Shown piece after piece: positions 28,456 through 48,698 of a stretch of 64,000 bases of DNA. How positions within the stretch are numbered: position 1 is the first letter of the stretch; every line of letters starts with the position of its first letter. The notes under the pieces were generated by a model that was not told where the DNA came from, did not search any database, and saw only the letters and a program-made list of their open reading frames with translations. The position numbers and the translations under genes are program-made. The DNA is from an uncultured Candidatus Binatia bacterium (lineage in GTDB: Bacteria; Desulfobacterota; Binatia; UBA9968; JAJDTQ01), in NCBI GenBank assembly GCA_965218305.1, contig OZ244617.1:3522967-3586966 (forward strand). The letters run 5' to 3'.

Positions 28456-28536
28456 TTAAACTGTGAGTTTCTCGCGACTCCTGATGGGCACATATGCTCC
28501 GATGCCGAGATCGGAGAACTCCTTCTTGTCAACCAT
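28456..28536 (-). pseudogene. truncated 5' stub of a gene coupled to the amidohydrolase
   Basis: TGATG overlap with the amidohydrolase stop; MVDKKEFSDLGIGAYVPI then runs into AT-rich island DNA. Confidence 0.4.
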
Positions 28537-29567: not shown

Positions 29568-29655
29568 TTCGGTTTCCTCCGCTTTTGGGATTGCATTGAA
29601 ACAGGCCGGTCCTCGGCCTGATAGCCGTGTGCTCTATCCGAAGTCCGGGAACGAA

Positions 29656-29768
29656 TCAACGCCCCTTCCAAGCCGGCGGGCGCTTCTTGACGAAGGCGCG
29701 CGGCCCTTCCTTGCTGTCCTCGGCGGTAAGCACCAAGGCGGCGAGGTCGGATTCCAGCCGCAGCGCCT
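29656..29768 (-). pseudogene. 3' remnant of enoyl-CoA hydratase
   Basis: ALRLESDLAALVLTAEDSKEGPRAFVKKRPPAWKGR*, nearly identical to the end of the 31537-32352 gene; cut off at the MITE. Confidence 0.9.
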
Positions 29769-29771
29769 ACA

Positions 29772-29958
29772 CTAGTGTCCTGCGTCACAAATACGCTTAT
29801 GAATCTGCGGGTCCTTTTGGCCGTCGGCTGCGTACGTCACCCCGGGCTTGACCCGGGGTCTTCCTCGCGTGGTACCCGCCACTGCTCGTCATCGCGCCTT
29901 GCCGACAACCAAAATGCCCTCGCATCTTCATAAGCGTATTTGTGACGCAGGACCCTAG
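29772..29958. mobile_element. 187-bp MITE bounded by CTAG, with long terminal inverted repeats
   Basis: GTCCTGCGTCACAAATACGCTTATGAA (29777-29803) pairs perfectly with 29927-29953; CTAG at both outer ends; no transposase; REP A palindrome inside at 29835-29860. Confidence 0.85.
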
Positions 29959-29992
29959 CGGCAGGGGGAGCCCCGTTCGCTCCAATCCGATC

Positions 29993-31024
29993 TCAAAGGT
30001 GGTAAAGCGCCCGCGCGTTCCCGCCCGTGATCTTGGCGGCGACCTCCGGGCTCAGGCGCGGGTCGTCGGCGACGCCGTCCAGGGCCAGCAGCTCGGTGGC
30101 GCTGTCGGCGTGGCCGTAGTCGGTGCCCACTACCAGGTGGTCTTCGCCGGCGGTGTCGATGACGTAGGGCAGGTCGTCGTTGGTCTCGCAACCGACCCAG
30201 ATCCGGTTCTGGGCCAGCAACTCCTTCTTGTTGAAGTCCTTGCCCGCCATGTGGTGGCGCTTGTACAGGTCGCTCATCGCGTAGGGCAGCCACTGGGAGC
30301 CCACCTCCAGGAACGCCATCTTGAGATTCGGGAACCGCTCCGGGATCTTGTCCATGATGATGGTGTGGAACGCCCCCACCACCACTAGCTTGAACTTCGA
30401 GAAGCCCACGGTCTCGTACTTGTAGTAGTCGTAAAGCACGGAGCTGCCGTTGGAGGAGTGGATGCACGCCGGGATGTCGAGCCTGCTGGCGGCGTCGTAG
30501 ACCGGATAGAAGTGGGGATCGCTCAGCAGCCGCTCGCCCTCGGAGCCGCGCATGTAGATGCCCACCGCGCCGTTCTCCTTGGCCAGCCGGGCCTCCTCGT
30601 ACACCTGGTCCGTGTCGAGCAGCGGCACCACCGCCACCCAGCGCAGGCGGTTGTCGGACTGTTTCCAGCACTCGCCCATCCAGCGGTTGTAGCTGCGGCA
30701 CAACGCCAGCTCGATCTCGGGCCGGGGCGTCAGCGGGATGATGAAGATGGTGGGAAAGATGACCTGGATGTCCACCTTGAGCTCGTCCATGTGCTTGAGC
30801 CGCACCGCCACGTCCCGGAGCTCGCGTGACTCCAGCGGCGTGTCCTTGCCGACGTTGCGGGACTTGAGCCGCAGCGTCCCGTCCACCAGCCAGTACTCGT
30901 CCATGGCTCCGGAGCCGTTGAGGGTGCCGACGATCTCGGGACGGTACTTGTGGTCGGCGCCGTCCATGAATTCCCAGGTCTCTTCGGTTTCCAGGACGTG
31001 TGCGTCCGCATCAATTCTCAGCAT
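29993..31024 (-). CDS. amidohydrolase_2-family protein (tandem copy B)
   Basis: Same length (343 aa) as copy A, with long identical stretches. Confidence 0.95.
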   Translation of the reverse strand: MLRIDADAHVLETEETWEFMDGADHKYRPEIVGTLNGSGAMDEYWLVDGTLRLKSRNVGKDTPLESRELRDVAVRLKHMDELKVDIQVIFPTIFIIPLTPRPEIELALCRSYNRWMGECWKQSDNRLRWVAVVPLLDTDQVYEEARLAKENGAVGIYMRGSEGERLLSDPHFYPVYDAASRLDIPACIHSSNGSSVLYDYYKYETVGFSKFKLVVVGAFHTIIMDKIPERFPNLKMAFLEVGSQWLPYAMSDLYKRHHMAGKDFNKKELLAQNRIWVGCETNDDLPYVIDTAGEDHLVVGTDYGHADSATELLALDGVADDPRLSPEVAAKITGGNARALYHL

Positions 31025-31133
31025 TTGCCGGCTCCTTTACGGGTAGTACGGGACAGGTGTCCGCTAGCCGTGTGCTGTATCCGAAGTCGGGGTATGAATC
31101 AACGGGTAGTGCGTCAGTTTGGCCACGTGAACG

Positions 31134-31445
31134 TCAACAGTCGTCGCGTGCCTCATCGGCGGTGGTCAGCTCGATAATGGACTTTTCGCTTTCGGTTCTT
31201 TCGGATCTACGAGAGGTCACGCGAAGCGCCACGCAGAGCACCAACCACGCCAAGGCGCAAATGATCAGCGGAAACAGTAAGGGGGGATCAGATGCGACGG
31301 GAGGTTTCAAGCCAAAGGCCGAAGGCCACTCTGAGAGAAGCATGTGGCTCCAGAAATAGAATCCATAGTACGCGACGGTGCCAAGAGTGACGTTCGCAAG
31401 AATCATTCCCAGGGCAACGGCAAGAATCAATTGGGGCATCCGCAT
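31134..31445 (-). CDS. small predicted two-TM membrane protein in a direct-repeat-flanked insert
   Basis: Two hydrophobic segments and an acidic tail; lies between AATCAACGG copies at 31097-31105 and 31535-31543. Confidence 0.55.
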   Translation of the reverse strand: MRMPQLILAVALGMILANVTLGTVAYYGFYFWSHMLLSEWPSAFGLKPPVASDPPLLFPLIICALAWLVLCVALRVTSRRSERTESEKSIIELTTADEARDDC

Positions 31446-31536
31446 GGCCCTTTCCCTATGCGACCGAGTCCATCAGGCCGTAGCGGCTTCTCGTTCCCCG
31501 GCCCCACCGTTGAAACGATGTAGGCAGATCACACAA

Positions 31537-32352
31537 TCAACGGCCCTTCCACACCGGCGGCCGCTTTTCGACGAAGGCCCGCGGCCCTTCCTTGCAGTCT
31601 TCGGTGGTGAGGACCAGGGCGGCGAGATCGGACTCCAAGCGCAGCGCCTGGTCCAGCGGCAGGCCCTCGCCCTTGCGGACGGATTCCTTGATGTACCGGA
31701 GGGCCAGTGGCGCGCCCTTGGCGAAGGACGCCGCCATCTCCTCGCCGGCGCGGGTCAGCTCGTCCGCGGGTACCAGCTTGTTGACGAGCCCGATACGGTA
31801 CGCTTCCTGAGCGTCCACCAGCGCCCCGGACAGGCACATCTCCATAGCCTTGGCAGCGCCCACGAGGCGGGCGAGTCGTTGCGTCCCGCCCGATGCCGGC
31901 ATGAAGCCGAGCCGAACCTCGGTCACGCCCATCCGGGCGTTCTCCGCGGCGATGCGGATGTCGCAGGCCATGGCGATCAACAGGCCGGCTCCGACAACGT
32001 AGCCGTGCAACAGCGCGATGGTAGGCTTCTGCACCAAGGCCGCGGCGTCGATGGGCGAATGGACGCCCGGAGCCTGCTTTGCCTGCCGGGCCTCCAGCGG
32101 AGAGACCGAGACCGCTGCCGGTTCGGTGTTGCGGCTGGCCCGCTCCTTGATGTCGCCGCCCACGGAAAATGCTTTTTCACCGGCGCCCCGAAAGAGAACC
32201 ACCTGGACGTCCTTGTCTGCTTGCGCCCGGTTGCAGAGATCCATCATGCGCTGCCGCATGTCCTCGTTGATGGCGTTCATCGCCTCGGGCCGGTTCAGCG
32301 TGATCCACGCCGTCTGCTCTCTGACCTCGTACAGGACAGTGTCGTTGTTCAT
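31537..32352 (-). CDS. enoyl-CoA hydratase/isomerase family protein
   Basis: ITLNRPEAMNA, AFSVGGDI, MACDIRIAA, EVRLGFMPASGG. Confidence 0.95.
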   Translation of the reverse strand: MNNDTVLYEVREQTAWITLNRPEAMNAINEDMRQRMMDLCNRAQADKDVQVVLFRGAGEKAFSVGGDIKERASRNTEPAAVSVSPLEARQAKQAPGVHSPIDAAALVQKPTIALLHGYVVGAGLLIAMACDIRIAAENARMGVTEVRLGFMPASGGTQRLARLVGAAKAMEMCLSGALVDAQEAYRIGLVNKLVPADELTRAGEEMAASFAKGAPLALRYIKESVRKGEGLPLDQALRLESDLAALVLTTEDCKEGPRAFVEKRPPVWKGR

Positions 32353-32378
32353 CAGCTTAGCCTCCACCCCGCCTCCCC

Positions 32379-32406
32379 TGGATCCCGGGTCAAGCCCGGG
32401 ATGACG
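32379..32406. repeat. REP family A copy
   Basis: TGGATCCCGGGTCAAGCCCGGGATGACG. Confidence 0.85.
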
Positions 32407-32420
32407 GAAGGCTCTAGACA

Positions 32421-33410
32421 CTACACGAGCCGGTAAACCTGTGCGGCGGTGTCGTGGAACAGCGCCGCGCGTTCCGTGTCGGAGTAGCCCCGGGACATGA
32501 TCTTGAAGGCGTTCCACACCGACACATAGGAATAGGATACCCGGTCCACCGGGAAATTGCTTTCGAACATACAGCGGCCGGCGCCGAACTTCTCGATGCA
32601 GAATTCGAAGTAGGGCCGCATGGCCTCGGCCAGCTCGGCGGAGCCGGGCTTCGGCTCGCGCGTGTGCCAGTCGTAACCCGAGCGCAGCGAGCCGACGCCG
32701 CCCAGCTTCAACACCACGTTGGGGCACGAGGACAGCGCGGTGATGTCGGCGCTCCAGGCCTGGAACACCTCGTTGCGCCGGCCCTCGTAGGGTCCCAGCC
32801 CCAGGGGTCCGCCGATGTGATCGAGAATGATGGGCACGTCGGGGAAAGCCCGCGCCAGCTCCACCAGCTCCGGTATCTGGGGGTGATAGAGCCAGGCATC
32901 GAAGCTCAGCCCGAGGGGTTGCAGGCATGCGAAGCCCTTGCGGACGGCGTTGTCCCGGAGCAGGCCGGGCCGTGGCACGCTGCGGAACGAGTCCGAGGCG
33001 TCCCACATGGTGGAATAGCGGATGCCGCGCAAGCGGGTGGGGCTCGCCTCCAGGTGTGCTTCCAGGACCGCGGCCACGGCGTCGGCGAGGGTCAGGTCGG
33101 CATAGGCCACGATGGCGGCCGCCACCGCGGTGTCGTTGCCTGCCCGCGAATTCTCGGCCGCGATACTCTCCAGAAACTCCGTTTCTCCAACCGGCCGCAA
33201 CTCCGGCGGCCCGCCGTCCCGGTACATGGCCCCGCATTCCACGGCCACGCTCGATACGATGCGATAGCCGCCCGAGGCGTCGCGCAGGAAGTCGTCCAGC
33301 AGGTAAGGGTTGTTGGGACGCCGCCACAGGTGGTGGTGCGGGTCGCAGATGGCGAGGCCGGGTTCCAGTGGATCCTCGTCAGTCGTGGTCGGATCGGTCA
33401 CCGTCGCCAC
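32421..33410 (-). CDS. amidohydrolase-family protein (lactonase-like group)
   Basis: ICDPHHHLW, GIRY, SFDAWLYHPQ, ILDHIG, MFESNFP. Confidence 0.93.
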   Translation of the reverse strand: MATVTDPTTTDEDPLEPGLAICDPHHHLWRRPNNPYLLDDFLRDASGGYRIVSSVAVECGAMYRDGGPPELRPVGETEFLESIAAENSRAGNDTAVAAAIVAYADLTLADAVAAVLEAHLEASPTRLRGIRYSTMWDASDSFRSVPRPGLLRDNAVRKGFACLQPLGLSFDAWLYHPQIPELVELARAFPDVPIILDHIGGPLGLGPYEGRRNEVFQAWSADITALSSCPNVVLKLGGVGSLRSGYDWHTREPKPGSAELAEAMRPYFEFCIEKFGAGRCMFESNFPVDRVSYSYVSVWNAFKIMSRGYSDTERAALFHDTAAQVYRLV

Positions 33411-33456: not shown

Positions 33457-33561
33457 CGTAGGTCGGATTAGCGAAGCGTAATCCGACAACTCGTCGTTCT
33501 TGCGGTCCCGGCATGCCGGATTGTTTTGATGTCGGATTACGCTTCGCTAATCCGACCTACG
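33457..33561. repeat. REP family B (GTAG-type) inverted doublet / REPIN
   Basis: CGTAGGTCGGATTAGCGAAGCGTAATCCGACA (33457-33488) and its exact reverse complement (33530-33561). Confidence 0.92.
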
Positions 33562-33655
33562 GTCTCTGCCGTGCCGGTGCTCGCACTGCACCGCCGGGTT
33601 TGGTACACAGGGTTTTGCCTTCGACGGACGAGCCGATTCCGGCTGAGGAGGTCGT

Positions 33656-34912
33656 GTGGATTTCGAGCTGGCCCATTACCCTGTCCGGTCCCTTTCCTGG
33701 GGCGCCAACACCGAATATCGGGAGGGCGAACTCATTGTCAACCGCGAAGCGCTACGCGCCGAGTTGCTGACGGAACCGCTCATCGACGATGTGGAGCTGA
33801 GCATCGTGCGGCCCGGGGAGCGTACTCGGGTCCTCCACGTGGCGGACATCGTCGAGCCGCGCTGGAAGGACCCGGAGCGCGGCGGCGCGTTCCCCGGCAG
33901 CCTGGGACCCTTGTACCAGTGCGGCCTCGGCCGAACTCATGCGCTGGACGGCGTGGCCGTGGTTACGTCCGGCTCCCTCCCGAGATCCGAGGAGGCCATC
34001 ATCGACATGTGCGGCCGCGGCAGCGAGTTGAGCCGGTTCGGCCGCATGCCCGGTCTGGTGGTCCTGCCCATCCCGCGGGAGGGATCCGACCCCGGTCAAT
34101 TCGGCCTTGCCCTCATGCGCGCGGGGCTTCGGACGGCGGTGTTCCTGGCCGAGACGACGAAGTCGGTCGAGCCGGCCCGCACCGAAGCTTTCTCCCTGGA
34201 CCTGGGACGGGGCGCGTCGCGGGACCTGCCGCGTATCGGATACCTCACCTTCGCGTATTCCCACGGGATCGGCCGCCAGAAGCTGTTCTACGGCAAGAGC
34301 ACCAAGGACATCGTGTCCAGCGTGGTGCATCCCAACGAGCTGCTGGACGGGGCGCTGGTGAACGACGGCTATACCAAGCCCACCAAGAACGCCACCCACG
34401 ACATCCTGAACCATCCGATGATCCGCGAGCTTCACCGCCGGCACAACGACGACCTCGTGTTCGCGGGCATGGTGTTGGCCAACCACCACGCCACCTACGA
34501 GGAGAAGGCGGACACGGCCTTTCACGCGGCGCGGCTGCTGAGGCACGTGGTGGGGGCCGAGGCCGTGGTCATCACCAAGGACGGCGGCGGCCAGGCGGAC
34601 GTGGACCTGATGCTGGCCTGCAGGGCCTGCGAGGAGGTGGGCCTGCGCACGGTGCTGGTGGCCAAGGAGGAGTCCGGCGACGACGGCCCGGGGATGGTGG
34701 ACGTTGCGCCCCAGGCGGACGCCATGGTCAGCGTCGGCAACTGCCCCGAGAAGGTCCGTCTCGACGAGTCCATGGACCAGGTCATCGGCGGCGACGCCTT
34801 TCTCGGCGCCATCGAGGGGGACGTGGCCGGCACGGTGGAGATCCCGGTGCAGAACATCATCGGCGCCATCGATCCCATCGGCGGGTCCACGCTGATGGCC
34901 CGCGCGGGGTAG
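33656..34912 (+). CDS. glycine/sarcosine/betaine reductase component B proprotein-like subunit (GrdE/GrdG/GrdI family)
   Basis: IVRPGERTRVLHVADIVEPRWK, GRTHALDGVAVV, HPNELLDGA, DAMVSVGN; directly upstream of the selenoprotein B gene. Confidence 0.88.
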   Translation: MDFELAHYPVRSLSWGANTEYREGELIVNREALRAELLTEPLIDDVELSIVRPGERTRVLHVADIVEPRWKDPERGGAFPGSLGPLYQCGLGRTHALDGVAVVTSGSLPRSEEAIIDMCGRGSELSRFGRMPGLVVLPIPREGSDPGQFGLALMRAGLRTAVFLAETTKSVEPARTEAFSLDLGRGASRDLPRIGYLTFAYSHGIGRQKLFYGKSTKDIVSSVVHPNELLDGALVNDGYTKPTKNATHDILNHPMIRELHRRHNDDLVFAGMVLANHHATYEEKADTAFHAARLLRHVVGAEAVVITKDGGGQADVDLMLACRACEEVGLRTVLVAKEESGDDGPGMVDVAPQADAMVSVGNCPEKVRLDESMDQVIGGDAFLGAIEGDVAGTVEIPVQNIIGAIDPIGGSTLMARAG

Positions 34913-34921
34913 GGAGGCAAG

Positions 34922-36208
34922 ATGAAACGAATCGTCCACTACGTGAACCAGTTCTTCGCCGGCCTCGGCGGCGAGGAAAGCGCCGGTCTCGCGCCCGGCC
35001 ATCTGGAAGGCGCGACCGGGCCGGGCAGGCTGTTGCAAACGTTACTGGGGGAGAGTGCCGGCATTGTCACGACGGTCTACTGCGGCGACGATCACTTCTC
35101 CGAGAACGAGGATGAGGCGACAGCCCGGCTGCTGGAGCTGATGACGGCGGCCAAGCCCGACCTGCTGTTCGCCGGCCCGGCCTTTGGCTCGGGCCGCTAC
35201 GGCCTAGCCTGCGCGGCGGTGTGCCGGGCGGCGAGTGCCGAGCTCGGCGTCCCGGTCCTGACCGCCATGGCGCTGTCCAACCCCGGCGCCGACTTGATCC
35301 GGCGCGAGCTTCCGGTGGTCCGCACCGGAGAGTCGTCGGGCGACATGCGCGCCGCCCTCGAGTGCTCGGCCGGTCTGATCGCGAGGATCCTGACCGGCGA
35401 GGCCGTGGCGCCAGGCAGCGAGGAGGGCCTGATCCGCGGCGGCCGTTGGAACACGCGCGCGTCCAGGCGGGCCGCCGAGCGGGCCGTGGACCTGCTTCTG
35501 GCCAAGCTCGCCGGTGGTCCCATGGAAACGGAGATCCCGCTGCCGGCCCTCGAGGAGGTCGCGCCGGCGCCCGGGATCTGCGACCTCAGGTACGCCAAGG
35601 TGGCGCTGGTCACCACCGGCGGTCTCGTGCCACGGGGCAATCCGGATGGGATCAAGTCGTACCTGTCCACTCACTTCGGGGTCTACGGGCTGGAGAGCAA
35701 GGAGCACCTCACCGCGGACGAGTTCGAGTCGGTGCACGGCGGCTTTTTCACCGCCGCGGTGAACGACGACCCCAACCGGCTCATTCCCCTGGACGTGCTG
35801 CGGGAGGCGGTTCGGGAAGGATTCCTGGGGGCGCTGCACGAACGCTTCTATTCCACCACGGGCAACGGCACGCCCATCGAGACCGCGGCCAGCATGGCCC
35901 GGGACATCGCGGCATCGCTGGAGGAGGACGGCGTCGACGGCGTCATCCTCACCTCTGCCTGAGGCACCTGCACTCGCTGCGGCGCAGCGATGGCAAAGGA
36001 ACTGGAAAGAGGCGGCATCCCGACGGTGCACGTGACCAATCTCGTTTCGGTGTCGGAGAACACCGGGGCCAAGCGGATCCTGTCCGGACGGGCGATTCCG
36101 CACGTGTTCGGCGATCCCTCACTTGGCGCGGACGAGGAGCGTCAGCTCCGGCGGCGGTTGGTGGAGCAGGCACTGGAGATGTTGAAGGAGGAGGAGGGGG
36201 CGGCGTGA
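34922..36208 (+). CDS. glycine/sarcosine/betaine reductase selenoprotein B (GrdB/GrdF/GrdH family), Sec at TGA 35960-35962
   Basis: VHYVNQFFAGLGGEE N-terminus; GVILTSA-TGA-GTCTRCGA (UxxCxxC) continues in frame as MAKELERGGIPTVH...IPHVFGDP. Confidence 0.92.
35963..35992 (+). promoter_or_regulatory. bacterial SECIS element
   Basis: 11 nt after the UGA comes a 17-nt hairpin TCGCTGC-GGC-GCAGCGA (35974-35990), the same geometry as the E. coli fdhF SECIS. Confidence 0.75.
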
Positions 36209-36244
36209 TCGTCCGGATTGTCCGGTGTTTTTTCCGGGGGGTCC

Positions 36245-36277
36245 TTGACATGCTGGCCGTAAAGTCGGTTAATCGCA
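36245..36277 (+). promoter_or_regulatory. putative sigma70 promoter of tctC1
   Basis: TTGACA-N17-GTTAAT; AGTCGGTTAATCGCAC is shared with the tctC2 upstream region. Confidence 0.55.
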
Positions 36278-36303
36278 CGATCAAAAGCGAGAGGAGGCAT
36301 CGC

Positions 36304-37350
36304 ATGGTTAAACGAGTTCTCGTTCTGACGGCAGGGTTGCTGCTCCTGGCGGGCCCGGTATGGGCTGACGCGGTGGCGGACTTCTACAAGGGCAAGACCA
36401 TCCGCATTGTGGTCGGCTATGGTCCGGGCGGCACCACCGACCTCACCACTCGGCTGATCGCGCCGGTTCTGCACAAGTATATTCCCGGGGGACCGCGGAT
36501 CGTGGTCCAGAACAAGTCGGGCGGCGGCAGCATGCTGGCGGCCAATACGGTGTTCAACAACGAGCGCAGGGACGGCACGGTGATGGCGGCCATCAGCAGC
36601 AGCCTCGTGATGAAGCAGGCTCGCGGCGTGGAGGGGATCAGGTTCGATGGCAGAAAGTTCAATTGGGTCTCCAGCGCGTTCCGGGCCAATTCCATGTGCG
36701 CGATCCGGATGGATGCGGGCGTGAGCAGCTTTAGCGAGGCGGTGAAGACCAAGAAGCAGCTCATCATGTCGAGCTTCGACAAGGGCGGCCTTTCCCATCT
36801 CGAGCCGATCATCTTCAACGCCGTGTTCGGCAGCAACTTCAAGGCCGTTACCGGATACCCCAGCGGCGGCGCCCAGCGTCTGGCGGTGAAGAACGGTGAA
36901 GTCAACGGTTTCTGCACGACTTTCCAGACGGCCAAGAGCACCGAGATCGCCATGTTCGAGGGTACGGCGAAGTGTTGCCGGGTCCTCATCATCGCGGGCG
37001 CGACCAAGGAGGATCACCGTCTGCTGAAGGGTGTCCCCGCGGCCGAGGCGTTGGCCAAGGAGCAGGGCAAGAGCGCTGAAGAGCTGGCCATGCTGAGGGC
37101 GATGAACGCCACCAACCAGATCAGCATCGTCCACACGCTCCCGCCCGGAGTGCCGAAGGACCGTGTCGAGGCCATGCGCGATGCATTCGCCAAGGCGTAC
37201 ACCGATCCGCAGGTCAAGGCGCTGGCGGAGAAGCAGAAACGCGATCTGCAGCCCAGGCGGGGCGACAACGTGGCCCAGATCGTCGACGAGTTGCTCAACA
37301 CTCCCAAGTCCATCATGGACAGGTTGAAGGCGCTTATCGCGAAGGGCTGA
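36304..37350 (+). CDS. tctC: tripartite tricarboxylate transporter substrate-binding protein (Bug/TctC)
   Basis: Signal peptide, FYKGKTIRIVVGYGPGGTTD, VQNKSGGG, VTGYPSGG, GEVNG. Confidence 0.92.
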   Translation: MVKRVLVLTAGLLLLAGPVWADAVADFYKGKTIRIVVGYGPGGTTDLTTRLIAPVLHKYIPGGPRIVVQNKSGGGSMLAANTVFNNERRDGTVMAAISSSLVMKQARGVEGIRFDGRKFNWVSSAFRANSMCAIRMDAGVSSFSEAVKTKKQLIMSSFDKGGLSHLEPIIFNAVFGSNFKAVTGYPSGGAQRLAVKNGEVNGFCTTFQTAKSTEIAMFEGTAKCCRVLIIAGATKEDHRLLKGVPAAEALAKEQGKSAEELAMLRAMNATNQISIVHTLPPGVPKDRVEAMRDAFAKAYTDPQVKALAEKQKRDLQPRRGDNVAQIVDELLNTPKSIMDRLKALIAKG

Positions 37351-37493
37351 AGACCGGCGGCGTACCGTCGCGTCAAATCAACCGTGGGTGGTTCCGGGGA
37401 CCGGTTCGCGTCCGCCGCAGGGCGGTCGCGGGCCGGGCTCCCCGGACTCAAACCTGAAGACACAAAACCAACCGTTCTCGTTACCGTAGCGCC

Positions 37494-38999
37494 ATGTTTG
37501 AAGCCTTCGTCACGGGTCTCATCCAGGTATTCGATCAGACCACGTTCCTGCTGATGATGGTGGGTATTGTCCTGGGGTTCATCGTCGGGATCCTGCCCGG
37601 CATCGGCAGCCCCGGCGCGGTGGCCCTCATGCTGCCGTTCATCTTCAGCATGGACCCGGTGCAGGCGTTCGCCTTCCTGCTCGGGATGTACGCGGTCACC
37701 GGCACCACCGGTGACATCACCTCGATCCTGTTCGGCGTGCCCGGGGAGGTGGTGTCCACCGCCACCATCATCGACGGGCATCCCATGGCAAAGAAGGGCG
37801 AGGCCGGCCGCGCGCTGGGCGCGGCGCTCATGAGCTCTCTCGTGGGCGCCATCGTCGGTGCATTCTCCCTGGCCGCCGCCATTCCCATCGTCACCCCGCT
37901 GGTACTGTCCTTCAAGTCACCGGAGTTCTTCTCGCTGGCGATCCTGGGGATCTGCTTTCTCGCGGCGCTGAGCGGCAACAACAGGCTCAAGGGGGTGCTG
38001 GCCGGGGGACTGGGGCTGGTGCTTTCCACCGTCGGCCTGGACTACCAGGAGAACATCGAGCGCTACACCTTTGGCCTGATAAACCTCTGGGAGGGGCTCG
38101 GCCTCATCGCCGCGGCCGTGGGGCTGTTCGCCGTGCCGGAGATCGTGGAGTTGTGGGTCAAGGGCTCCAGCATCGCCGAAGCCAAGGTGGGCAAGCTGGG
38201 GGGCGTGTGGCAGGGGATCAAGGACACCTTCATCCACATCGGCATTACCGTGCGCTGCAGCATGATCGGCACCTTTTTCGGCCTGGTCCCGGGTGTGAGC
38301 GCGGCGCTGTCCCAATGGGTGTCTTACGCCCACGCGGTCCAGAGCTCCAGGGACCGCAGCGGCTTCGGCAAGGGCGACGTCCGCGGCGTCCTGGGACCGG
38401 GGGCGGCCAACAACTCGGGCATCGGCGCGGCCATGATCCCCACCGTGGCCTTCGGCGTGCCCGGCAGTGCCACCACCGCCATCCTGCTGGGCGCCTTCAT
38501 CATCCAGGGGCTGCAACCCGGACCGAAGATGCTGACCGAGCATCTGGCCCTGACCTTCTCGTTCGTCTGGCTCATCGTCATCTCGAATATCATCACCGTC
38601 GCGTTTTGCCTGCTGTTCCTGAACCAGTTGGCGAAGATCACCCAGATACGCGGGTCGCTGCTGATTCCCGCGCTGTTCATGCTCATCTACCTGGCGGGTT
38701 TCGCCAACACCAACTCCTACTTCGCCATGACCACCACCCTGGCGTTCGGGGTTGCCGGCGTGATCATGGTGAGCCACGGCTGGCCCCGTCCGCCGCTGGT
38801 GCTGGGTCTGGTGCTCGGGCCCCTGGTGGAGCGGAACCTGTTCATCTCGTACGAGATCTACGGGCTCTGGTTCTTTTTCAGGCCCATCGTCATGGTGACC
38901 TTCGGGATTGCCCTTGTCGTGATCTTCCTGCCCGGGCTGCAGGACTGGATGGCGAAGCGGGCTCAGCCCAAGGAGGTGGCGGGTGCGGAACCGGACTGA
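37494..38999 (+). CDS. tctA: tripartite tricarboxylate transporter large membrane subunit
   Basis: GILPGIG, ILFGVPG...TIIDGHPMAKKG, AANN, FGVPGS, GLQPGP. Confidence 0.95.
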   Translation: MFEAFVTGLIQVFDQTTFLLMMVGIVLGFIVGILPGIGSPGAVALMLPFIFSMDPVQAFAFLLGMYAVTGTTGDITSILFGVPGEVVSTATIIDGHPMAKKGEAGRALGAALMSSLVGAIVGAFSLAAAIPIVTPLVLSFKSPEFFSLAILGICFLAALSGNNRLKGVLAGGLGLVLSTVGLDYQENIERYTFGLINLWEGLGLIAAAVGLFAVPEIVELWVKGSSIAEAKVGKLGGVWQGIKDTFIHIGITVRCSMIGTFFGLVPGVSAALSQWVSYAHAVQSSRDRSGFGKGDVRGVLGPGAANNSGIGAAMIPTVAFGVPGSATTAILLGAFIIQGLQPGPKMLTEHLALTFSFVWLIVISNIITVAFCLLFLNQLAKITQIRGSLLIPALFMLIYLAGFANTNSYFAMTTTLAFGVAGVIMVSHGWPRPPLVLGLVLGPLVERNLFISYEIYGLWFFFRPIVMVTFGIALVVIFLPGLQDWMAKRAQPKEVAGAEPD

Positions 39000-39540
39000 C
39001 ATCGTCATCGGCGTGTTGCTGGTGGTGCTCCTCGCCTGGGCGGTGTGGGAAGCGCAGGACTGGCCGGTCCGCACGCGGTTCTTCCCTCTCGCCATCGGTT
39101 ATCCGATGCTGGCCCTGGCGGTGATCTTTCTCGTCTACAGCCTGTGGCTCGGACTCCGGCCGGCCGGACCCGGGCAGGGTCTGGAAGAACCCGAGCCCGC
39201 GGCGGAGGCCGGACCCCCTCTCGAACCAGCCGTGGTGCGCCGGCGCACGCTTGAGATCGCCGTCTGGGCCGTGGCCTTCGCGATGGGCCTGTGGCTCCTG
39301 GGATTCAAGGTGGGCGGGCTGGTCATCCCCCTGGTCTTCCTCCGGTTCCAGGCCCACGAGCCCTGGGGCACCAGCATCCTGTACAGCCTTGGCGTTTACC
39401 TGTTCTTCTGGGGCGGCCTGGAGCGGGCCCTCTCGTTTCCCCTGCCCGGCGGCCGCATCGCCTACGGCCTCGGCCTCTATTCCTTCGACTCCTACCTGAC
39501 GGACCCGATTCTGGACGCGATTCTGAACCTGTTTGAGTGA
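38983..39540 (+). CDS. tctB: tripartite tricarboxylate transporter small membrane subunit
   Basis: Four-TM protein overlapping tctA; FFPLAIG...LGF...F..LPGG. Confidence 0.88.
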   Translation: MRNRTDIVIGVLLVVLLAWAVWEAQDWPVRTRFFPLAIGYPMLALAVIFLVYSLWLGLRPAGPGQGLEEPEPAAEAGPPLEPAVVRRRTLEIAVWAVAFAMGLWLLGFKVGGLVIPLVFLRFQAHEPWGTSILYSLGVYLFFWGGLERALSFPLPGGRIAYGLGLYSFDSYLTDPILDAILNLFE

Positions 39541-39614
39541 GGATTCCCGTTTGGGACACACGGGTAGCCGTTGTCTGGCCTACTACTGACACGTGCGCCT
39601 TGGCTCACCACGTC

Positions 39615-39649
39615 TTGACAAGCGAGCGAGAATAGTCGGTTAATCGCAC
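39615..39649 (+). promoter_or_regulatory. putative sigma70 promoter of tctC2
   Basis: TTGACA-N18-GTTAAT with the same AGTCGGTTAATCGCAC core. Confidence 0.55.
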
Positions 39650-39669
39650 CACCGAAAAGGAGGTGCCTT

Positions 39670-40716
39670 ATGTGTCAGCGAGTTCTCGTTCTGATAGCGG
39701 GTTTCGTGCTGTTTGCGGGGCCGGTGTGGGGTGAATCGGTGGCCGAGTTCTACAAGGGCAAGACCTTCCGCATTGTCGTCGGGCTGGGTCCGGGGGGCGC
39801 CACGGATACCAACGCCCGGCTGATTTCGCACGTGTTGTCGCGCCACATCCCCGGACATCCCCGGATCATCGTGCAGAACAAGCCCGGCGGCGGTAGCATG
39901 CTGGCGGCCAACACCGTTTACAACAATGAGCCGCAGGACGGCACCGTGCTCGCGGCCATCAGCAGCGCGCTCGTGGCCCAGCAAGCCCGTGGCGAACGGG
40001 GTGTGCGTTTCGACGCCCGAAAGTTCCAGTGGGTCGCCAGCGCGTTCGACTCGTCGGCCATGTGCGCCATACGGACCGACGCGGGAGTGAACAATTTCAG
40101 CGAAGCGGTGAAGACGAAGAAGCGGCTCACGTTTTCAGCCTTCAGCAAGGGCGGCCTTTCCCACCTTGAGCCGGTGATCTTCAATGCGGTCTTCGGCTCC
40201 AACTTAAAGGCCGTCACGGGGTATCCGAGCGGCGGGGCCCAGCGTCTGGCGGTCAAGAATGGTGAGGTCAACGGTTTCTGCACGACTTTCCAGACGGTCA
40301 AGAGCACCGAGATTGGCATGTTCGAAGGCGACGCGAAGTGCTGCAAGGTAATGATCATCGCGGGCAACCAGAAGATCGATCACCGCCTCGCCAAGGGGGT
40401 GCCGATCGCCGAACTGTTGGCCAAGGAGTTGGGCAAGAGCGAGAGTGACATCGCCATGCTGCGGGTGCTGAACGCGACGAACCGCATCAGCATCGTGCAG
40501 ACGTTCGGGCCGGGAGTGCCCAAGGACCGCGTTCAGGCGCTCCGCGACGCCTACGAGAAGTCGTACAAGGATCCGGACCTGGTGAAGCTGGCAAAGAAGG
40601 CGGGGATGGATCTCAAGCCGAAGCGTGGTGAGCAGGTGCAGGAGATCGTCAACGAACTGCTCAGCATGCCCAAGTCGGTGCTGATGAAAATGAAAGAACT
40701 GATCAGCAAGAGCTGA
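39670..40716 (+). CDS. tctC: second Bug/TctC paralogue
   Basis: Colinear with tctC1 and shares long identical blocks (e.g. KAVTGYPSGGAQRLAVKNGEVNGFCTTFQT). Confidence 0.92.
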   Translation: MCQRVLVLIAGFVLFAGPVWGESVAEFYKGKTFRIVVGLGPGGATDTNARLISHVLSRHIPGHPRIIVQNKPGGGSMLAANTVYNNEPQDGTVLAAISSALVAQQARGERGVRFDARKFQWVASAFDSSAMCAIRTDAGVNNFSEAVKTKKRLTFSAFSKGGLSHLEPVIFNAVFGSNLKAVTGYPSGGAQRLAVKNGEVNGFCTTFQTVKSTEIGMFEGDAKCCKVMIIAGNQKIDHRLAKGVPIAELLAKELGKSESDIAMLRVLNATNRISIVQTFGPGVPKDRVQALRDAYEKSYKDPDLVKLAKKAGMDLKPKRGEQVQEIVNELLSMPKSVLMKMKELISKS

Positions 40717-40808
40717 CAGGCTACCGAGTGCCGCGGAGACCACCCGCCCATGGTTCCCGGCCCGCGTCGCCCGCAGGTGATCGCGGGCCGGGAATTGCCG
40801 GAGCATTC

Positions 40809-41615
40809 ATGATGCAGGTTCTCGATCTCGATCGCTGGCCGCTGGACGTGCTCGGGGAGGCGCGGGGACAGGCCCTGGTTGACCGCTGTCGGAACGAGCT
40901 GCGCGAAGCCGGCATGTTCAGCCTCACCGGGCTGATACGGCTGGAGGCCCTTTGTGCCAGCGTTGCAGAGTTGGAGCCGCTGTTCGACTCCGGCGCCTTT
41001 GTTCACGCGCGCGAACACAACATCTACTTCGATGACGAGATCGGGGATTTGGAGCCGGTCCACCCGGCGTTCAGCCGGTTCACGACGATCAACCGCACGA
41101 TTTGCGGCGACCAGGTTCCCGGGAGTCTGATCACGCGGATTTACGAATGGCAGCCGCTCATCGACTTCCTGGCCGCGGCTATGGACAAGCCTGGGCTATA
41201 CCCGATGGCGGATCCCCTGGGCCGGATCAATGTCATGTGTTATCGGGCCGGGGAGCGCCTCAATTGGCATTTCGACCGGGCCGAATTCACCACGACCATG
41301 CTCTTGCAGGCCCCGGTGTCGGGCGGCGAATTCCAGTACCGCAGCGGGCTTCGGAGCGACACTGACCCGAACTACGAGGGGGTCGCGCGCCTTCTGGTCG
41401 GCGAAGACCAACACGCGCGGACGCTGTCGCTGTCGTCCGGCACGCTCAATGTCTTCAGGGGCAAGAATACGGCGCATCGCGTGACGACGGTCGAAGGAGG
41501 CCGCGCGCGCATCATCGCGGTGTTCTCGTACTACGAGACAGCAGACGTCGCATTCAGCGATGCTGAGCGGCTCGGATTCTACGGTCGGACCGGTCCCGTG
41601 AAAGTCGACACCTAA
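40809..41615 (+). CDS. 2-oxoglutarate/Fe(II)-dependent oxygenase
   Basis: WHFD...LQAPVSGGEF...FRGKNTAHRVTTVEG..AR (HxD...H...R). Confidence 0.85.
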   Translation: MMQVLDLDRWPLDVLGEARGQALVDRCRNELREAGMFSLTGLIRLEALCASVAELEPLFDSGAFVHAREHNIYFDDEIGDLEPVHPAFSRFTTINRTICGDQVPGSLITRIYEWQPLIDFLAAAMDKPGLYPMADPLGRINVMCYRAGERLNWHFDRAEFTTTMLLQAPVSGGEFQYRSGLRSDTDPNYEGVARLLVGEDQHARTLSLSSGTLNVFRGKNTAHRVTTVEGGRARIIAVFSYYETADVAFSDAERLGFYGRTGPVKVDT

Positions 41616-41777
41616 CCGCTTGCGGCTCGGTCCGGGGCTCTGGGCAAGCAGCGCGAAGCGTCGAATTCCTCCGGCCGGTTGTCGGCGGGAGAGAGAGCCC
41701 GAGTTGGCGGAGTGACACTGGTCAGGCTGTTGTTCGGCGAGTGGGTTCGGTGTCGATCGGCGCGGTAACGCATTGAT

Positions 41778-41879
41778 TGAGGTGGTCCTGGTTTGTTGGA
41801 CAGGGTGCTGGCATGATCGATGACTCGGAATACACCTTATCTCGGCCGCCATCCTGTCCAAGAAACCAGGACCACCTCA
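41778..41879 (+). mobile_element. 102-bp IS3-derived MITE (two ends, interior deleted)
   Basis: 30-bp inverted repeats with 2 mismatches (41778-41807 / 41850-41879, TG...CA); the inner part matches the right-end sequence of the IS3 copy at 47864. Confidence 0.8.
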
Positions 41880-43302
41880 GTCCTGCCGTTCCGGTTGAGC
41901 CGGCGGAGGGGCGGGCGAGCGGTGGGGCTCAGCCTGCATCTCCATCAGCATTCCTTTGTCGTAGGCCTCGGCCGGGGTGGAGTCGGCCAGGGCGGAGTGA
42001 GGCCTTTGGGTGTTGTAGAACCCTATCCAACGGGCGATGACCCGTTGGGCCTGGAAGCCGTCGGAGAGTTCGTGCAGGTAGACGGCTTCGTACTTGAGCG
42101 AACGCCAGAGGCGCTCGATGAAGATGTTGTCCATACACCGGCCCCTGCCGTCCATGGAGATGGCCACACCGGCGTCTTTGAGGGTGGCGGTGAACTCCAG
42201 GCTGGTGAACTGGCTGCCCTGGTCGGTGTTGAAGATCTGAGGCCGGCCGTAGCGTTCCAGAGCTTCGGTCAGGGCCTCCGTGCAGAACCGGGCATCGAGG
42301 GTGTTGCTAAGCCGCCAGGAGAGCACCCGGCGGGTGGCCCAGTCCATGACCGCCACCAGGTACAGGAAGCCCTTCTGGACAGGGATGTAGGTGTAGGGGT
42401 CGGACCGGAGCGCCCTGTCGTCTTTCGAGCGATGGGTTTCTCCGGCCCGCCCTCCGAACCGGACGTGCGACTCTCACCGCATCCGGCTCTCCATGTGCTC
42501 ATACCGTCAGGTTCAGCTTCGTCTGCATCGCGAGTACTCGTGACTCCGCCTCGATCGGACCAAGCCATGAAGCACCGGTATTCACCAGCGTCCTCCTCGT
42601 TGGGCATTGAAGCCGGGAGCACACTGGACCCCTTCGCCATGTACACGGCTTTCCCGTGCTCGGACTACTACGGGTCCTCCGCCCCACTCCGCCGGCATCA
42701 ACCGGCGACAGGTCTTCCCCGCCATGCTGGCAGGGACCGACGAAGTGGTTCCCACGTTCACTCTCGAACCCTTCAACGGGGTCGGTGCCCAGCTATGCCC
42801 CTGCAACCTCGCCACGGCTACGCCGCAGTCCTTCACCGTGGCCTCCCTGCCGGCGACATAAACCGGCCCAGGAGTTCCCCAACTGGCCAGACCAGTCGGG
42901 TGCGCGTTGCAACCCAGCCCTTATCTGTCAGGTTCGAGCTGGTGGTGCTTGAGGGGCTTTCCGCCGCTGGTTCCTTGCGTACACCTCTCCGTCTCGCTTG
43001 CCGGACCCACGCCATCTGACAGTGCTGGCGCGTCCCGTCGTTGTCAGGACTGCTTCCACCTTCACCGATGTCCCTCGGGTCGGGCTGCCCTCAGCTTCTT
43101 TCAGCCTGCTGCGACAGGCTGTCGGCGGTGGTCTCTCACCACCGCAAGGTTCGAGAACGCCTCGTGGCGCTCGATGTCCGCCGTCCAGACCTGATTGGGC
43201 CGTTCGATGGCGAGGCCCTTGAGAAGATAGGGATACACCCGGTGCTGGGGGGATGCCGTGTGGTGGTCCGGGGCGCCTGGTAGATGGCCTGTAGCCACCT
43301 CA
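41880..43302 (-). pseudogene. IS3-family transposase OrfB fragment interrupted by a group II intron
   Basis: HRVYPYLL...NQVWTADI [intron] TYIPVQKGFLYLVAVMDW...NTDQGSQFTS...DNIFIERLWRSLKYE; only 8 bp of the left end remain (CCACCTCA 43295-43302). Confidence 0.92.
42393..43172 (-). ncRNA. ORF-less group II intron (780 nt) with internally deleted RT/maturase
   Basis: 5' GAGCG (consensus GUGYG); domain V GAGAGCCGGAUGCGGUGAGAGUCGCACGUCCGGUUC (42456-42491); 3' end CCCUAC; 28-aa IEP stub at 42499-42585; removal rejoins the D-I/T-Y codons. Confidence 0.9.
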
Positions 43303-43346
43303 GTCAGCATCAACGCCAACATATCTGCAAACTTGGACCTCTAGTT

Positions 43347-44672
43347 CTACCTATGAACCCAGCGTTCAAGCTTGCGAATGGCATCATCTAGACCCTTCCG
43401 TACTTCCTTGAGGTCGGTGACCACTCCACCTATCTCGTTTGACCGGCTTGCAAACAGTTCTCCCTGCCTACGTGCTTCCCTTGCCATATCGTGCGCCGGC
43501 CAACGTACTACTGCATTTACACACGGGTGCAATTCCACGACCAATCTGCCAGGTGTTACTGTCCTGAATTGAGCCCCAAACATCCCACCTTCAAACAAGA
43601 CACGCAGCTCCCTGATTCCAATATCGCAGCGTGGCCGGGACAAAATCGAGTCTTCCTCCGTTAACGCTCTCCAAACGTGCCGCCCAAGGCTACTGAGACA
43701 TAATTCGCGCTTCCCGTGTAGTCCGGCAAACAACCCGAGCCAAACAACCGCGCTAGGGTACCGTTCCAGATGTTTCAATATCAAACCGGCATGTTTGATA
43801 GTGCCGGGGAAAATTCTGCTCCCCAAATAACCGGCGACAAACGAGTACTCTTCCTTGTATCGGTATCCCCAGTTCCCTCGGTCCCCAAGTACGTGTTCCA
43901 GAACAGTCACCCGGTCCTCTTGCGTACCCTTCATTGGCTCAATTGCCTGCCGCGCATTTGGGAAACCCGATGTCAACCGCTTCCACGTCGCTTCTCCGAT
44001 TTCGCCCTTGTCAACTACCTCCCTAAGGCCGGCAACAAGCGACCGATTCCCGCCGCGCTTCGACCTGCGATCCGACTCCTCCGCGGGACCGTTTATCATA
44101 TCCATTACGGTCTCCCACGGGACCAACAAACTCTCAACCTCAATTCGCAGCGGAGCCTGTCCGGTAATACTTCTGCAATTCGACCATCCCCGCGCCAGCT
44201 GCGTCATATCGACCTTGCGCCGTATCCCTTGGGAAGCTGCATACGAAAAAGTCGCGATACACGCAGACATAGAAACACGGTCCACATCATACCCCTCACT
44301 CGACTGTGCCATTGCCTCTGTTACAACCAAGCCAATGGACGCCGCTTCCAGAAGTCTTTCTCCTTCGCGGCTGATTCGGTCATCGTTCCCAATCACTTCC
44401 TCATCGGAAAACACTCTGAAGTATGCCGAAATCGGACTCCAGTTTGGCACGTACGTGTTCGTCCACGCAAAGAAGTCGTCGACGTCTGCGTCGCGCACCA
44501 TCAACGCTACCGGCAACTCTCCGTTTCTTGGCTCCTTTGCCCAGATGAGCAGGACATCCCCCATCTTCAAGCCATCCCGGTCTCCACCTTCGCGAGCGCG
44601 AAGGGACTCCGCGGGCGACCCCCGCTGAAGCAGCTCCGTGAACTGCTGTCTCCCGACCTTAGCGTTCCACAT
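43347..44672 (-). CDS. hypothetical protein (441 aa), third gene of the kinase-helicase operon
   Basis: Intact ORF starting 2 nt after the helicase stop; no motif recognised; coiled-coil-like C-terminus. Confidence 0.8.
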   Translation of the reverse strand: MWNAKVGRQQFTELLQRGSPAESLRAREGGDRDGLKMGDVLLIWAKEPRNGELPVALMVRDADVDDFFAWTNTYVPNWSPISAYFRVFSDEEVIGNDDRISREGERLLEAASIGLVVTEAMAQSSEGYDVDRVSMSACIATFSYAASQGIRRKVDMTQLARGWSNCRSITGQAPLRIEVESLLVPWETVMDMINGPAEESDRRSKRGGNRSLVAGLREVVDKGEIGEATWKRLTSGFPNARQAIEPMKGTQEDRVTVLEHVLGDRGNWGYRYKEEYSFVAGYLGSRIFPGTIKHAGLILKHLERYPSAVVWLGLFAGLHGKRELCLSSLGRHVWRALTEEDSILSRPRCDIGIRELRVLFEGGMFGAQFRTVTPGRLVVELHPCVNAVVRWPAHDMAREARRQGELFASRSNEIGGVVTDLKEVRKGLDDAIRKLERWVHR

Positions 44673-44674
44673 TT

Positions 44675-45832
44675 CTATCCACCGTCTCCAAACAGCTCGT
44701 CAATCGACGGCAACGCTGATTTTGGCTCCAAAGACGCAATCGCCTGATCCAGAAAACCCAACAGCTCGCCCGAATAATACATGTACAATGCCGTTTTGGC
44801 CCGCGTGACCGCAGTAAACGCCAGAAATCGAGGCAGGGGTCGGCGCGCGAAATTCTCACAACTTAATACGTGGAGTACCCGGTATTCCAAACCTTTCGCT
44901 GCGTGCAGGGAGGACACGCAAATTCTAACATCGTCCGCGAACCGAACAATTTCACTCTCTCCATGGAAGCTCGCTGCGGCACCGAATTCCGTCTGTTCTA
45001 TCGCGGCCCATACTCGCATGGCCGCATCGCGGCTGGGAGAAATAACTCCTATTCGCTCATCAGGGTATGCGGCTATCTGCGCACTCAATTTCGAAATAAC
45101 GGACTCGATTTCCTCATCCAACGATCCACACCGTTCAAAGCGTACACTAGAAGGTCTGTCCTCCTCGTTATAGTTGCAACCCGCCTCAATTGGGTGAAAA
45201 TCCTCTCGGTCGCGACCAATGACATCAGCAAACCTGCAGATGCCTAGACCGTTTCGGTAATGGTGTGTCAATTCCACCTTTCCTTCAACGATCCTTTCCA
45301 GTACGCCGAAGGGCTCCTCGCCGCTGTATATTTTTTGGCGTCCGTCTGCTACGGCAAACAAGGTCTTACTCAGTCGCGCAAACAGCTCGACCTCCTCTGG
45401 AAGGTAATCATGTGCCTCGTCCAGTAATATTGCGTCATAGAGGTTTTGCAAACCATGTTTGTGAACAATACCAGTTACTTGCTGAACCAACCGCATCCGT
45501 TGTTCGGCGAAATCCTCCGCAGAATCGACCGTTACGCCATACTGTCGCAGAACATCTCTGAAAAATTGGTGAGATGTGACGATCTTCTCCTGCGGCACAC
45601 CGTACGCGTCGGCCCCTGCCACAATGAACTCGCGAAGCGCTCGTGTGAACACCACAATCTGAAAATTCGTTCTCTTTACCAAGGTCAGATATTTGGCCCT
45701 AAGAACCAACAAGTTAGTTTTTCCTGAACCGGGTGGACCCACGACGAGGTGCCCCTTGTCGAGAGGAAGAGCCACGACCCGCTGTTGGTCATCGTCCAAC
45801 TGACCTTCGGCCACCCACCACGTATCGTTCAT
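44675..45832 (-). CDS. compact superfamily-1 (UvrD-like) helicase/ATPase
   Basis: Q-motif LDDDQ, GPPGSGKT, LLDEAHD, AVADGRQKIY, HYRN, SLHAAKGLEY, FTAVTRAK. Confidence 0.9.
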   Translation of the reverse strand: MNDTWWVAEGQLDDDQQRVVALPLDKGHLVVGPPGSGKTNLLVLRAKYLTLVKRTNFQIVVFTRALREFIVAGADAYGVPQEKIVTSHQFFRDVLRQYGVTVDSAEDFAEQRMRLVQQVTGIVHKHGLQNLYDAILLDEAHDYLPEEVELFARLSKTLFAVADGRQKIYSGEEPFGVLERIVEGKVELTHHYRNGLGICRFADVIGRDREDFHPIEAGCNYNEEDRPSSVRFERCGSLDEEIESVISKLSAQIAAYPDERIGVISPSRDAAMRVWAAIEQTEFGAAASFHGESEIVRFADDVRICVSSLHAAKGLEYRVLHVLSCENFARRPLPRFLAFTAVTRAKTALYMYYSGELLGFLDQAIASLEPKSALPSIDELFGDGG

Positions 45833-48660: not shown

Positions 48661-48698
48661 CGCCTCCTCGCGTGTATGAGGCAGAGTCATGAGATACA

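Follow-up and report, generated by a model that had tools for sequence, protein, structure and literature searches.

Gene content of the locus

We examined a 64,000-nucleotide stretch of DNA from an uncultured Candidatus Binatia bacterium (assembly GCA_965218305.1; contig OZ244617.1, positions 3,522,967 to 3,586,966, forward strand), called the window below, in which a grdE-like gene and a grdB-like gene are followed by the genes of a tripartite tricarboxylate transporter (TTT). Judged from its sequence, the best explanation of this locus is a two-subunit, selenocysteine (Sec)-dependent reductase of the component B type, which forms a distinct, uncharacterized branch in sponge-associated Candidatus Binatia. 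An earlier note on this DNA had read its genes as grdE-like, Sec-containing grdB-like, tctC-tctA-tctB-tctC, and an oxygenase, and matches to Pfam and TIGRFAM models bore out both the content and the order (Table 1). TctA, TctB, and binding proteins of the TctC family are all encoded, which places the transporter in the TTT family; it adjoins the gene pair, as that note had stated.

Table 1. Features of the grdE-like/grdB-like module and its surroundings, in window coordinates
Feature	Position	Strand	Description
Amidohydro_2	28536-29567	-	Pfam match
Amidohydro_2	29993-31024	-	Pfam match
103-aa open reading frame (ORF)	31134-31445	-	Part of the divergent set
Enoyl-CoA hydratase	31537-32352	-	Pfam match
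Amidohydro_2	32421-33410	-	Pfam match
Repetitive extragenic palindrome (REP)-like inverted pair, 31-nt unit	33458-33560		Intergenic, upstream of the grdE-like gene
grdE-like gene	33656-34912	+	418 aa; PF09338, E 1.7e-96, profile positions 1-424 of 426
grdB-like selenoprotein gene	34922-36208	+	428 aa, Sec347; PF07355, E 8e-122; TIGR01918, 476 bits (cutoff 65)
UGA Sec codon and bacterial Sec insertion sequence (SECIS) hairpin	35960-36000	+	UGA, 35960-35962; hairpin, 35963-36000
Terminator-like hairpin and T-run	36213-36225	+	Directly 3' of the grdB-like stop; consensus scan only
tctC-1, periplasmic binding protein of the TTT	36304-37350	+	PF03401, 24.4 bits, slightly below the cutoff of 27
tctA, large membrane subunit	37494-38999	+	PF01970, E 3.5e-120
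tctB, small membrane subunit	38983-39540	+	PF07331, E 9e-10; synteny
tctC-2, paralogous binding protein	39670-40716	+	PF03401, 38.5 bits (cutoff 27)
2-Oxoglutarate (2OG)/HalD-like oxygenase	40728-41615	+	Likely start, ~40806; within the strain-specific island
13-kb strain-specific island	40804-53823		Not part of the module

A GrdE-family subunit without the pyruvoyl-site cysteine

The product of the grdE-like gene, which starts with GTG behind a GAGGAGG ribosome-binding site, is a full-length member of the GrdE family, to which the subunit of component B that binds the substrate belongs. It scored 233 bits against the GrdG model (cutoff, 780), 155 bits against the FarE model (cutoff, 675), and 22 bits against the PrdA model (cutoff, 700), and by these scores it is the equivalog of neither GrdG nor FarE.

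We aligned the protein with three references, namely, GrdE of Acetoanaerobium noterae (in which residue 242 is Cys), the annotated sarcosine reductase subunit GrdG of Peptoclostridium acidaminophilum, and a metagenomic GrdE whose locus is of the canonical type (grdX-trx-grdE-grdB). At the pyruvoyl site, each of these reads S-G-N-C-V-x-x-C-D-K. The GrdE-like protein reads N-D-G-Y-T-K-P-T-K-N at these columns, with G238-Y239-T240-K-P-T opposite N-C-V-x-x-C. The pyruvoyl-forming Cys is thus missing, as the earlier note had proposed, and the alignment provides neither an Asn-Cys self-cleavage site that would give an N-terminal pyruvoyl group nor either of the two conserved processing Cys residues of the GrdE/GrdG/PrdA type. 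One residue past the Cys column, Thr or Ser is kept across the clade of the protein, and G238, T240, N245, and T247 are invariant in that clade (38 to 100% identity). A check for an equivalent Cys or Ser cleavage site therefore upheld the absence of Cys and drew attention to Thr240, at which self-cleavage of the Ser/Thr type appears unlikely. The AlphaFold2 model of the protein is of high confidence (predicted local distance difference test score, 90.9). A sequence search of the PDB gave no relative of either subunit, and a Foldseek search of the model against the PDB returned best matches with template modeling scores of ≤0.2 (e.g., KaiC) and thus no clue at the fold level.

A GrdB-family selenoprotein

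Nine bases separate the grdE-like gene from the grdB-like gene in the window. The frame of the latter is crossed by an in-frame TGA within ILTSA-U-GTCTRCG, and the redox motif U-x-x-C-x-x-C is intact (U-G-T-C-T-R-C, with C350 and C353 kept). Immediately downstream of the TGA, the Rfam SECIS_4 model (RF01990) matched with 48.9 bits (gathering score, 38; E 2e-8), and the hairpin has a 7-bp stem that begins 11 nt past the UGA. All 37 related loci (37/37) have the TGA, and the protein sequence is conserved to both sides of it. Because of these three observations, the TGA is a selenocysteine codon and not a stop, in agreement with the earlier note. The SECIS assignment uses the covariance-model match because the thermodynamic z-score of the post-UGA hairpin (-0.1, in GC-rich DNA) was not significant.

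The GrdB-like protein fell below the equivalog cutoffs of the models for GrdB (441/602 bits), GrdF (479/800), GrdH (413/775), and PrdB (88/300). It is 45 to 48% identical to GrdF of P. acidaminophilum and to a canonical GrdB, and together with a 66% identical relative from Binatia it forms a separate branch of its own. Taken together, the profile matches (PF09338 for one subunit; PF07355 and TIGR01918, with Sec and SECIS, for the other) assign the module to component B at the superfamily level, and the module scores as an equivalog of none of GrdB, GrdF, GrdH, GrdG, FarE, PrdA, or PrdB.

Partner genes

A Pfam scan of approximately 50 ORFs of the 64-kb window found no genes for GrdA, GrdC/D, GrdX, thioredoxin (Trx), or the Sec machinery. 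The tblastn queries were three sequences each of GrdA and grd-type Trx, two of GrdC/D-like proteins, and one each of TrxB and GrdX; none had a match at E ≤ 0.01 in the window or in loci L001 to L004 and L010 to L038 (the related loci, L001 to L039, were covered as ±10 kb around the module). A scan of all six frames for motifs detected neither C-x-V-U-T-A-A nor CxPC in a credible ORF. These results agree with the statement of the earlier note that grdA, grdC/D, and thioredoxin genes are absent from the window, and the regions searched by tblastn hold no local set of grdA, grdC/grdD, and trxA/trxB for a three-protein complex. In the GrdA-dependent relatives (L005, L006, L008, and L039), partner genes are adjacent to the pair. 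A profile made from three GrdA sequences had at least 7958 matches in a database of 5.8 billion proteins, given without taxon names.

Conservation and expression in sponge-associated Binatia

A scan of GTDB species representatives yielded 29 loci, 20 of them at 86 to 95% identity and nearly all from Candidatus Binatia, and an identical GrdE-like protein is encoded on three ENA metagenome contigs. Many of the Binatia loci lie on complete chromosomes of 4 to 5.7 Mb. The order grdE-like, grdB-like, tctC, tctA, tctB, on the plus strand, is invariant in the sponge-Binatia clade (approximately 20 species). Both ORFs of the pair are intact, and Sec and SECIS are kept, in all of the approximately 24 Binatia loci, with 79 to 100% protein identity, which argues for purifying selection on the pair and makes a relic unlikely. 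The tctC-1 gene adjoins the grdB-like gene in all sponge-Binatia loci, and tctA is 92 to 100% conserved across L001 to L029. In contrast to these genes, clear orthologs of tctC-2 (91 to 100%), which has approximately 77% DNA identity to tctC-1, are confined to L001 to L003, L010, L011, L013, and L015. The solved structures nearest to TctC-1 are the terephthalate-binding protein TBP and BugE (E ~1e-11).

Contigs from several sponge metatranscriptomes map to the module at 90 to 99% identity. These contigs belong to relatives of the host and may include some DNA; read in this way, they likely indicate that relatives of the module are transcribed in sponges, and nothing finer can be read from them. 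Contigs with ~95% identity cover the grdE-like gene (33632 to 34914) at depths of 16 to 21 and also cover tctC and tctA, where the depth, 80 to 335, is far above that of the gene pair. The terminator-like hairpin behind the grdB-like gene may explain this step in depth.

Two variations in spacing were seen among the related loci. Between the grdE-like and grdB-like genes of L010 to L029, the spacer can be as short as that of the window (9 bp) or as long as 496 bp, and the insertions in it may be small repeats of the same, REP-like kind. In L001 and L002, which are near-identical strains, an extra segment of ~425 bp is present relative to window position 27206 (L002, 3116 to 3541).

Family placement and genomic contexts of relatives

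When 1.84 billion cluster representatives were searched exhaustively with HMMER, 976 members of the family were identified, including 209 at E ≤ 1e-30. The clade of the GrdE-like protein corresponds to one 50% cluster, and its nearest neighbors are 40 to 47% identical. Among the 146 nearest 50%-cluster representatives, Cys occupies the pyruvoyl column in approximately 10, Tyr in about half, and Phe in 16; this count comes from a fast alignment of a sample biased toward the Cys-less query, and within that frame, only a minority of the protein's nearest relatives are of the textbook pyruvoyl type. In a neighbor-joining tree, the GrdE-like protein groups with P0041, P0044, L031, and L035, which share the site G-[YHF]-[TS]-x-[PS], and the reference GrdE and GrdG sequences form a separate N-C clade. 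L004 falls in the same clade as the GrdE-like protein, and L004, L031, and L035 share G-[YF]-[TS]-x-P (GYT in L031 and GFS in L035); L007 and L009 are placed elsewhere.

The genomic contexts of the relatives are of several kinds. L006 and L039 are canonical, in that grdX, trx, or grdA is present. Orphan grdEB pairs without a nearby grdA recur in other lineages (L004, L007, L009, L031, and L035), where their neighbors include amidohydrolases, transporters, a biotin carboxylase, BKACE and choline sulfatase, hydantoinase A/B, and a xanthine-dehydrogenase-like enzyme. These pairs resemble the module in combining a Cys-less GrdE-like protein with a Sec-containing GrdB-like protein; they differ from it in their neighbors, their identity to the module is 35 to 66%, and none of them has been characterized.

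Further features of these contexts were noted. The orphan pair of L009 (6968 to 12299), with the motifs W-N-A-I-A-C and U-G-T-G-T-R-S, lies between a BKACE gene and a choline-sulfatase-like gene, a neighborhood that suggests quaternary-amine metabolism. In L005, an ORF with MerR-type helix-turn-helix and GRDB domains (212 to 1225) is found upstream of a GrdA-linked, Cys-less grdE/grdB cluster, and this cluster includes an aldehyde:ferredoxin oxidoreductase gene.

Comparison with characterized reductases

Several characterized enzymes share features with the module. One of them is GrdI/GrdH, the betaine reductase of P. acidaminophilum, which likewise combines a GrdE-family subunit lacking the two processing Cys residues with a Sec-containing GrdB-family partner (PMC10838667). 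GrdI and FarE, which are without the conserved cysteines of autocatalytic processing, are not processed (PMC10838667); for GrdI this property is taken from that source, and a search of annotated plasmids gave only grdG/grdF copies, on the P. acidaminophilum megaplasmid. The module differs from GrdI/GrdH in the low score of its GrdB-like protein on the GrdH model, in having a TTT and no betaine carrier of the BCCT/OpuD type, and in the lack of adjacent grdA, trx, and grdCD. The hosts also differ, i.e., a Binatia sponge symbiont here and a Stickland fermenter there.

GrdE/GrdB and GrdG/GrdF share with the module the two Pfam families at full length, the motif U-G-T-C-T-R-C, and the SECIS. However, the GrdE-like protein is just 29 to 31% identical to GrdE and GrdG, the N-C site is replaced by G-Y, and grdX, trx, and grdA are not among the neighbors of the module. 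FarE/FarB of Cloacibacillus porcorum also pairs a nonpyruvoyl GrdE-type subunit with a Sec-containing GrdB-type subunit, and its substrate, fluoroacetate, is a nonamine alpha-substituted acetate, which extends the family beyond amino acids (PMC10838667). FarB is without the CxxC cysteines, whereas the GrdB-like protein keeps them, and FarEB reportedly works with GrdA and GrdC; the FarE model score of the module is also far from its cutoff. The D-proline reductase PrdA/PrdB is a Sec reductase from which the reduced acid is set free directly, with no need for a protein A or C (PMC13188914). Its likeness to the module would be mechanistic only. PrdA itself is a pyruvoyl proprotein.

Proposed function and alternatives

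Our preferred reading, held tentatively and a little short of probable, is that the module encodes a GrdA-independent, PrdAB-like, nonpyruvoyl Sec reductase for an imported carboxylate. The TTT would import a carboxylate with a good leaving group on the alpha carbon (e.g., a quaternary ammonium, a sulfonium, or a halide), for which a Schiff base would be unnecessary, by analogy with GrdI and FarE. Sec347 would attack the alpha carbon and expel the leaving group, and Cys350 and Cys353 would then resolve the Se-alkyl intermediate, so that the reduced acid is formed and a Se-S bond is left, by analogy with the D-proline reductase PrdAB. There would be no handover to GrdA and GrdCD and no acetyl phosphate, and a general thiol system encoded elsewhere would rereduce the enzyme; the 2OG oxygenase would have no role. 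These steps build on the chemistry of the family, as far as the 2004 review by Andreesen is relayed in PMC13188914 and PMC10838667. The onium character of the substrate, which the earlier note had raised, is something that we purely infer. The same note had placed the enzyme possibly outside Stickland fermentation, which is plausible, since Candidatus Binatia in sponges have been described as aerobic methane oxidizers (PMC9999580).

Several observations weigh against this reading. In L005 and L008, the genes for Cys-less GrdE-like proteins directly adjoin a grdA with Sec as well as genes for thioredoxin and a GrdC/D-like (DUF5940) protein, and therefore loss of the Cys alone does not predict independence from GrdA. 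By the residue count among the nearest representatives, the missing Cys is no exceptional feature. The UGTCTRC motif is exactly that of GrdA-dependent GrdB, and so there is no sequence mark of a PrdB-like release. The link to tctCAB is confined to a single, fairly shallow clade (GrdE-like proteins 86 to 96% identical), and tctCAB is not beside the pair in the 66% identical relative L004. Within the locus, the hairpin behind the grdB-like gene may partially terminate transcription before it reaches tctCAB, and RNA coverage of the grdB-like gene is low or absent at ≥90% identity. Finally, grdA, grdCD, and trx of the Binatia may sit at another locus, because the FarEB of Cloacibacillus feeds a shared GrdA and GrdC encoded elsewhere in the genome (PMC10838667).

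This last point leads to the alternative that survives best, which we regard as possible but rather unlikely, namely, that the pair is a classical protein B that passes a carboxymethyl group to GrdA and, through GrdC/GrdD, yields acetyl phosphate, with thioredoxin as the reductant and the partners encoded elsewhere on the 4- to 5-Mb chromosome. Known organisms run several protein B sets, FarEB included, on one GrdA/GrdCD set (PMC10838667), and GrdA and GrdB co-occur in every selenoproteome listed in the table of PMC1794560; the canonical UGTCTRC motif and the Cys-less relatives with an adjacent grdA fit this alternative as well. Set against it are the absence of partner genes from the 64-kb window and from within 10 kb of approximately 25 Binatia or related loci, and the fact that a sponge study did not detect grdH in its genomes or transcripts (PMC9999580). 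Our literature search, moreover, found no paper tying Binatota/Binatia to glycine reductase and none linking Binatota/Binatia, TTT transporters, or sponges with GrdB/GrdE-type enzymes.

It is improbable that the pair has no catabolic role and that the TTT is merely adjacent, the pair being a Sec-dependent redox or detoxification protein (for dehalogenation of haloacetates from the host or for thiol/selenol chemistry) or a decaying relic. The terminator-like hairpin and the far higher RNA depth of tctC would fit two unlinked units, TTT and Amidohydro_2 genes are so abundant in these genomes that adjacency could arise by chance, and fluoroacetate reduction provides a case of dehalogenation inside the family (PMC10838667). 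The conservation of both ORFs, with Sec and SECIS, across the Binatia loci speaks against a relic, and the invariant order of grdE, grdB, tctC, tctA, and tctB in the clade speaks against unlinked genes. Very improbable, lastly, is self-processing of the GrdE-like protein at Thr240 (Ser in L035) to a 2-oxobutyryl or pyruvoyl form that would reduce a primary or secondary amine, e.g., a glycine- or sarcosine-like one, via a Schiff base: the invariant residues around the site, the GYT and GFS found at the same place in L031 and L035, and the mostly Ser-derived origin of the cofactor in pyruvoyl enzymes count for it, but both Cys residues of the GrdE/GrdG/PrdA type are missing, we know of no Thr-derived cofactor in the GrdE family, and the Tyr/Phe majority at the Cys column, GrdA-linked members included, points to a noncleaving architecture like that of GrdI and FarE.

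To our knowledge, Sec-dependent protein B reductases come nearly only from anaerobic amino-acid fermenters and are always accompanied by GrdA, GrdCD, and thioredoxin. The catalytic pair described here occurs beside a carboxylate importer in approximately 20 species of a sponge lineage described as aerobic, with neither the pyruvoyl site nor nearby partners. If the pair acts alone, as the GrdA-independent reading has it, this would be a new use of selenocysteine, for reductive C-X cleavage in symbionts, and the metabolite cleaved would possibly be derived from the host. A wider form of this reading, which we consider unlikely as it stands, holds that aerobic or microaerobic sponge Binatia and related lineages share a class of selenoenzymes that are independent of GrdA and GrdCD and cleave the C-N+, C-S+, or C-halogen bond of a host-derived, TTT-imported carboxylate, with no link to Stickland fermentation or acetyl phosphate. 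Were such a class to exist, Cys-less subunits of the Tyr/Phe type, which account for most of the environmental diversity of the family, would stand for a large group of Sec-dependent reductases that is still unexplored; a demonstration of GrdA independence and of a host-derived substrate would raise the interest of the locus from moderate to high.

The divergent gene set upstream of the pair

Upstream of the grdE-like gene, a divergently oriented set (28536 to 33410, minus strand) of Amidohydro_2, enoyl-CoA hydratase, and 103-aa ORF genes is retained in most sponge-Binatia loci and is a candidate for the same pathway. The Amidohydro_2 protein nearest to the pair is closest to PDB entry 4DLF (deposited as "Amidohydrolase 2"; E 1e-12), which we take to be the L-fucono-1,5-lactonase BmulJ_04915. 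The window has six Amidohydro_2 (PF04909) genes, i.e., the three of the divergent set and those at 22086 to 23147, 58945 to 60423, and 61053 to 62192. Those starting at 28536 and 29993 are tandem paralogs with ~90% DNA identity, and the family is strikingly expanded in this genome. As the Amidohydro_2 genes of the window are such abundant paralogs, we gave up their adjacency as a functional clue, for which it is weak. A subfamily of 280- to 290-aa Amidohydro_2 proteins lies beside orphan grdE/grdB pairs in three unrelated lineages (L004, 3555 to 4412; L031, 16667 to 17509; and L009, 390 to 1268); its members are 32 to 36% identical to each other, and no ortholog of them was found in the window.

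An Rfam scan at gathering scores found no riboswitch upstream of the grdE-like gene. The intergenic region there carries the REP-like unit GTAGGTCGGATTAGCGAAGCGTAATCCGACA, of which exact copies occur at 33458 to 33488 (plus strand), 33530 to 33560 (minus strand), and 62161 to 62191 (plus strand), against 0 expected by chance. The unit is also present in L001, L002, L003, L011, L013, and L017, and metatranscriptome contigs pile up and break at its positions; it seems to be a high-copy dispersed repeat of the lineage.

The strain-specific island and the oxygenase

The earlier note had joined the 2OG oxygenase to the module, a linkage that proved to be an accident of this strain. In alignments, L002 and L013 match the window up to 40803 and pick up again at 53824, and the likely start codon of the oxygenase falls on this boundary. 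The oxygenase is placed outside the module because it is located in the 13-kb island missing from these loci; searches of the related loci turned up no copy of it, and we rejected it as a pathway member. Besides the oxygenase, the island contains two IS3 transposase fragments, a group II intron remnant (RF00029 match at 42393 to 42491, minus strand), genes for a UvrD-like helicase, a Ser/Thr kinase, an HU-like protein, and an HNH endonuclease, and a 441-aa ORF without an assigned identity, and it may be a defense or mobile island. The usual downstream neighbors of the module, a thiolase-like/ChsH2 pair and an M19 dipeptidase, follow it at 53.9 to 56.8 kb.

The oxygenase has the motif WHFD, an H-x-D of the hydroxylase type. 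L001 departs from the window at a slightly different point (40872), which suggests a hot spot of insertion at this site. A lower-GC stretch at the other end of the window (1 to 19000) holds several ORFs without a Pfam match together with genes for a LytTR-domain protein (710 to 1699, plus strand), a NACHT/AAA_16 protein of 1637 aa (2754 to 7667, minus strand), a HEPN_Apea protein (10598 to 12106, minus strand), and an IrrE/M78 peptidase-domain protein (16974 to 18575, minus strand), and it looks like a defense island.

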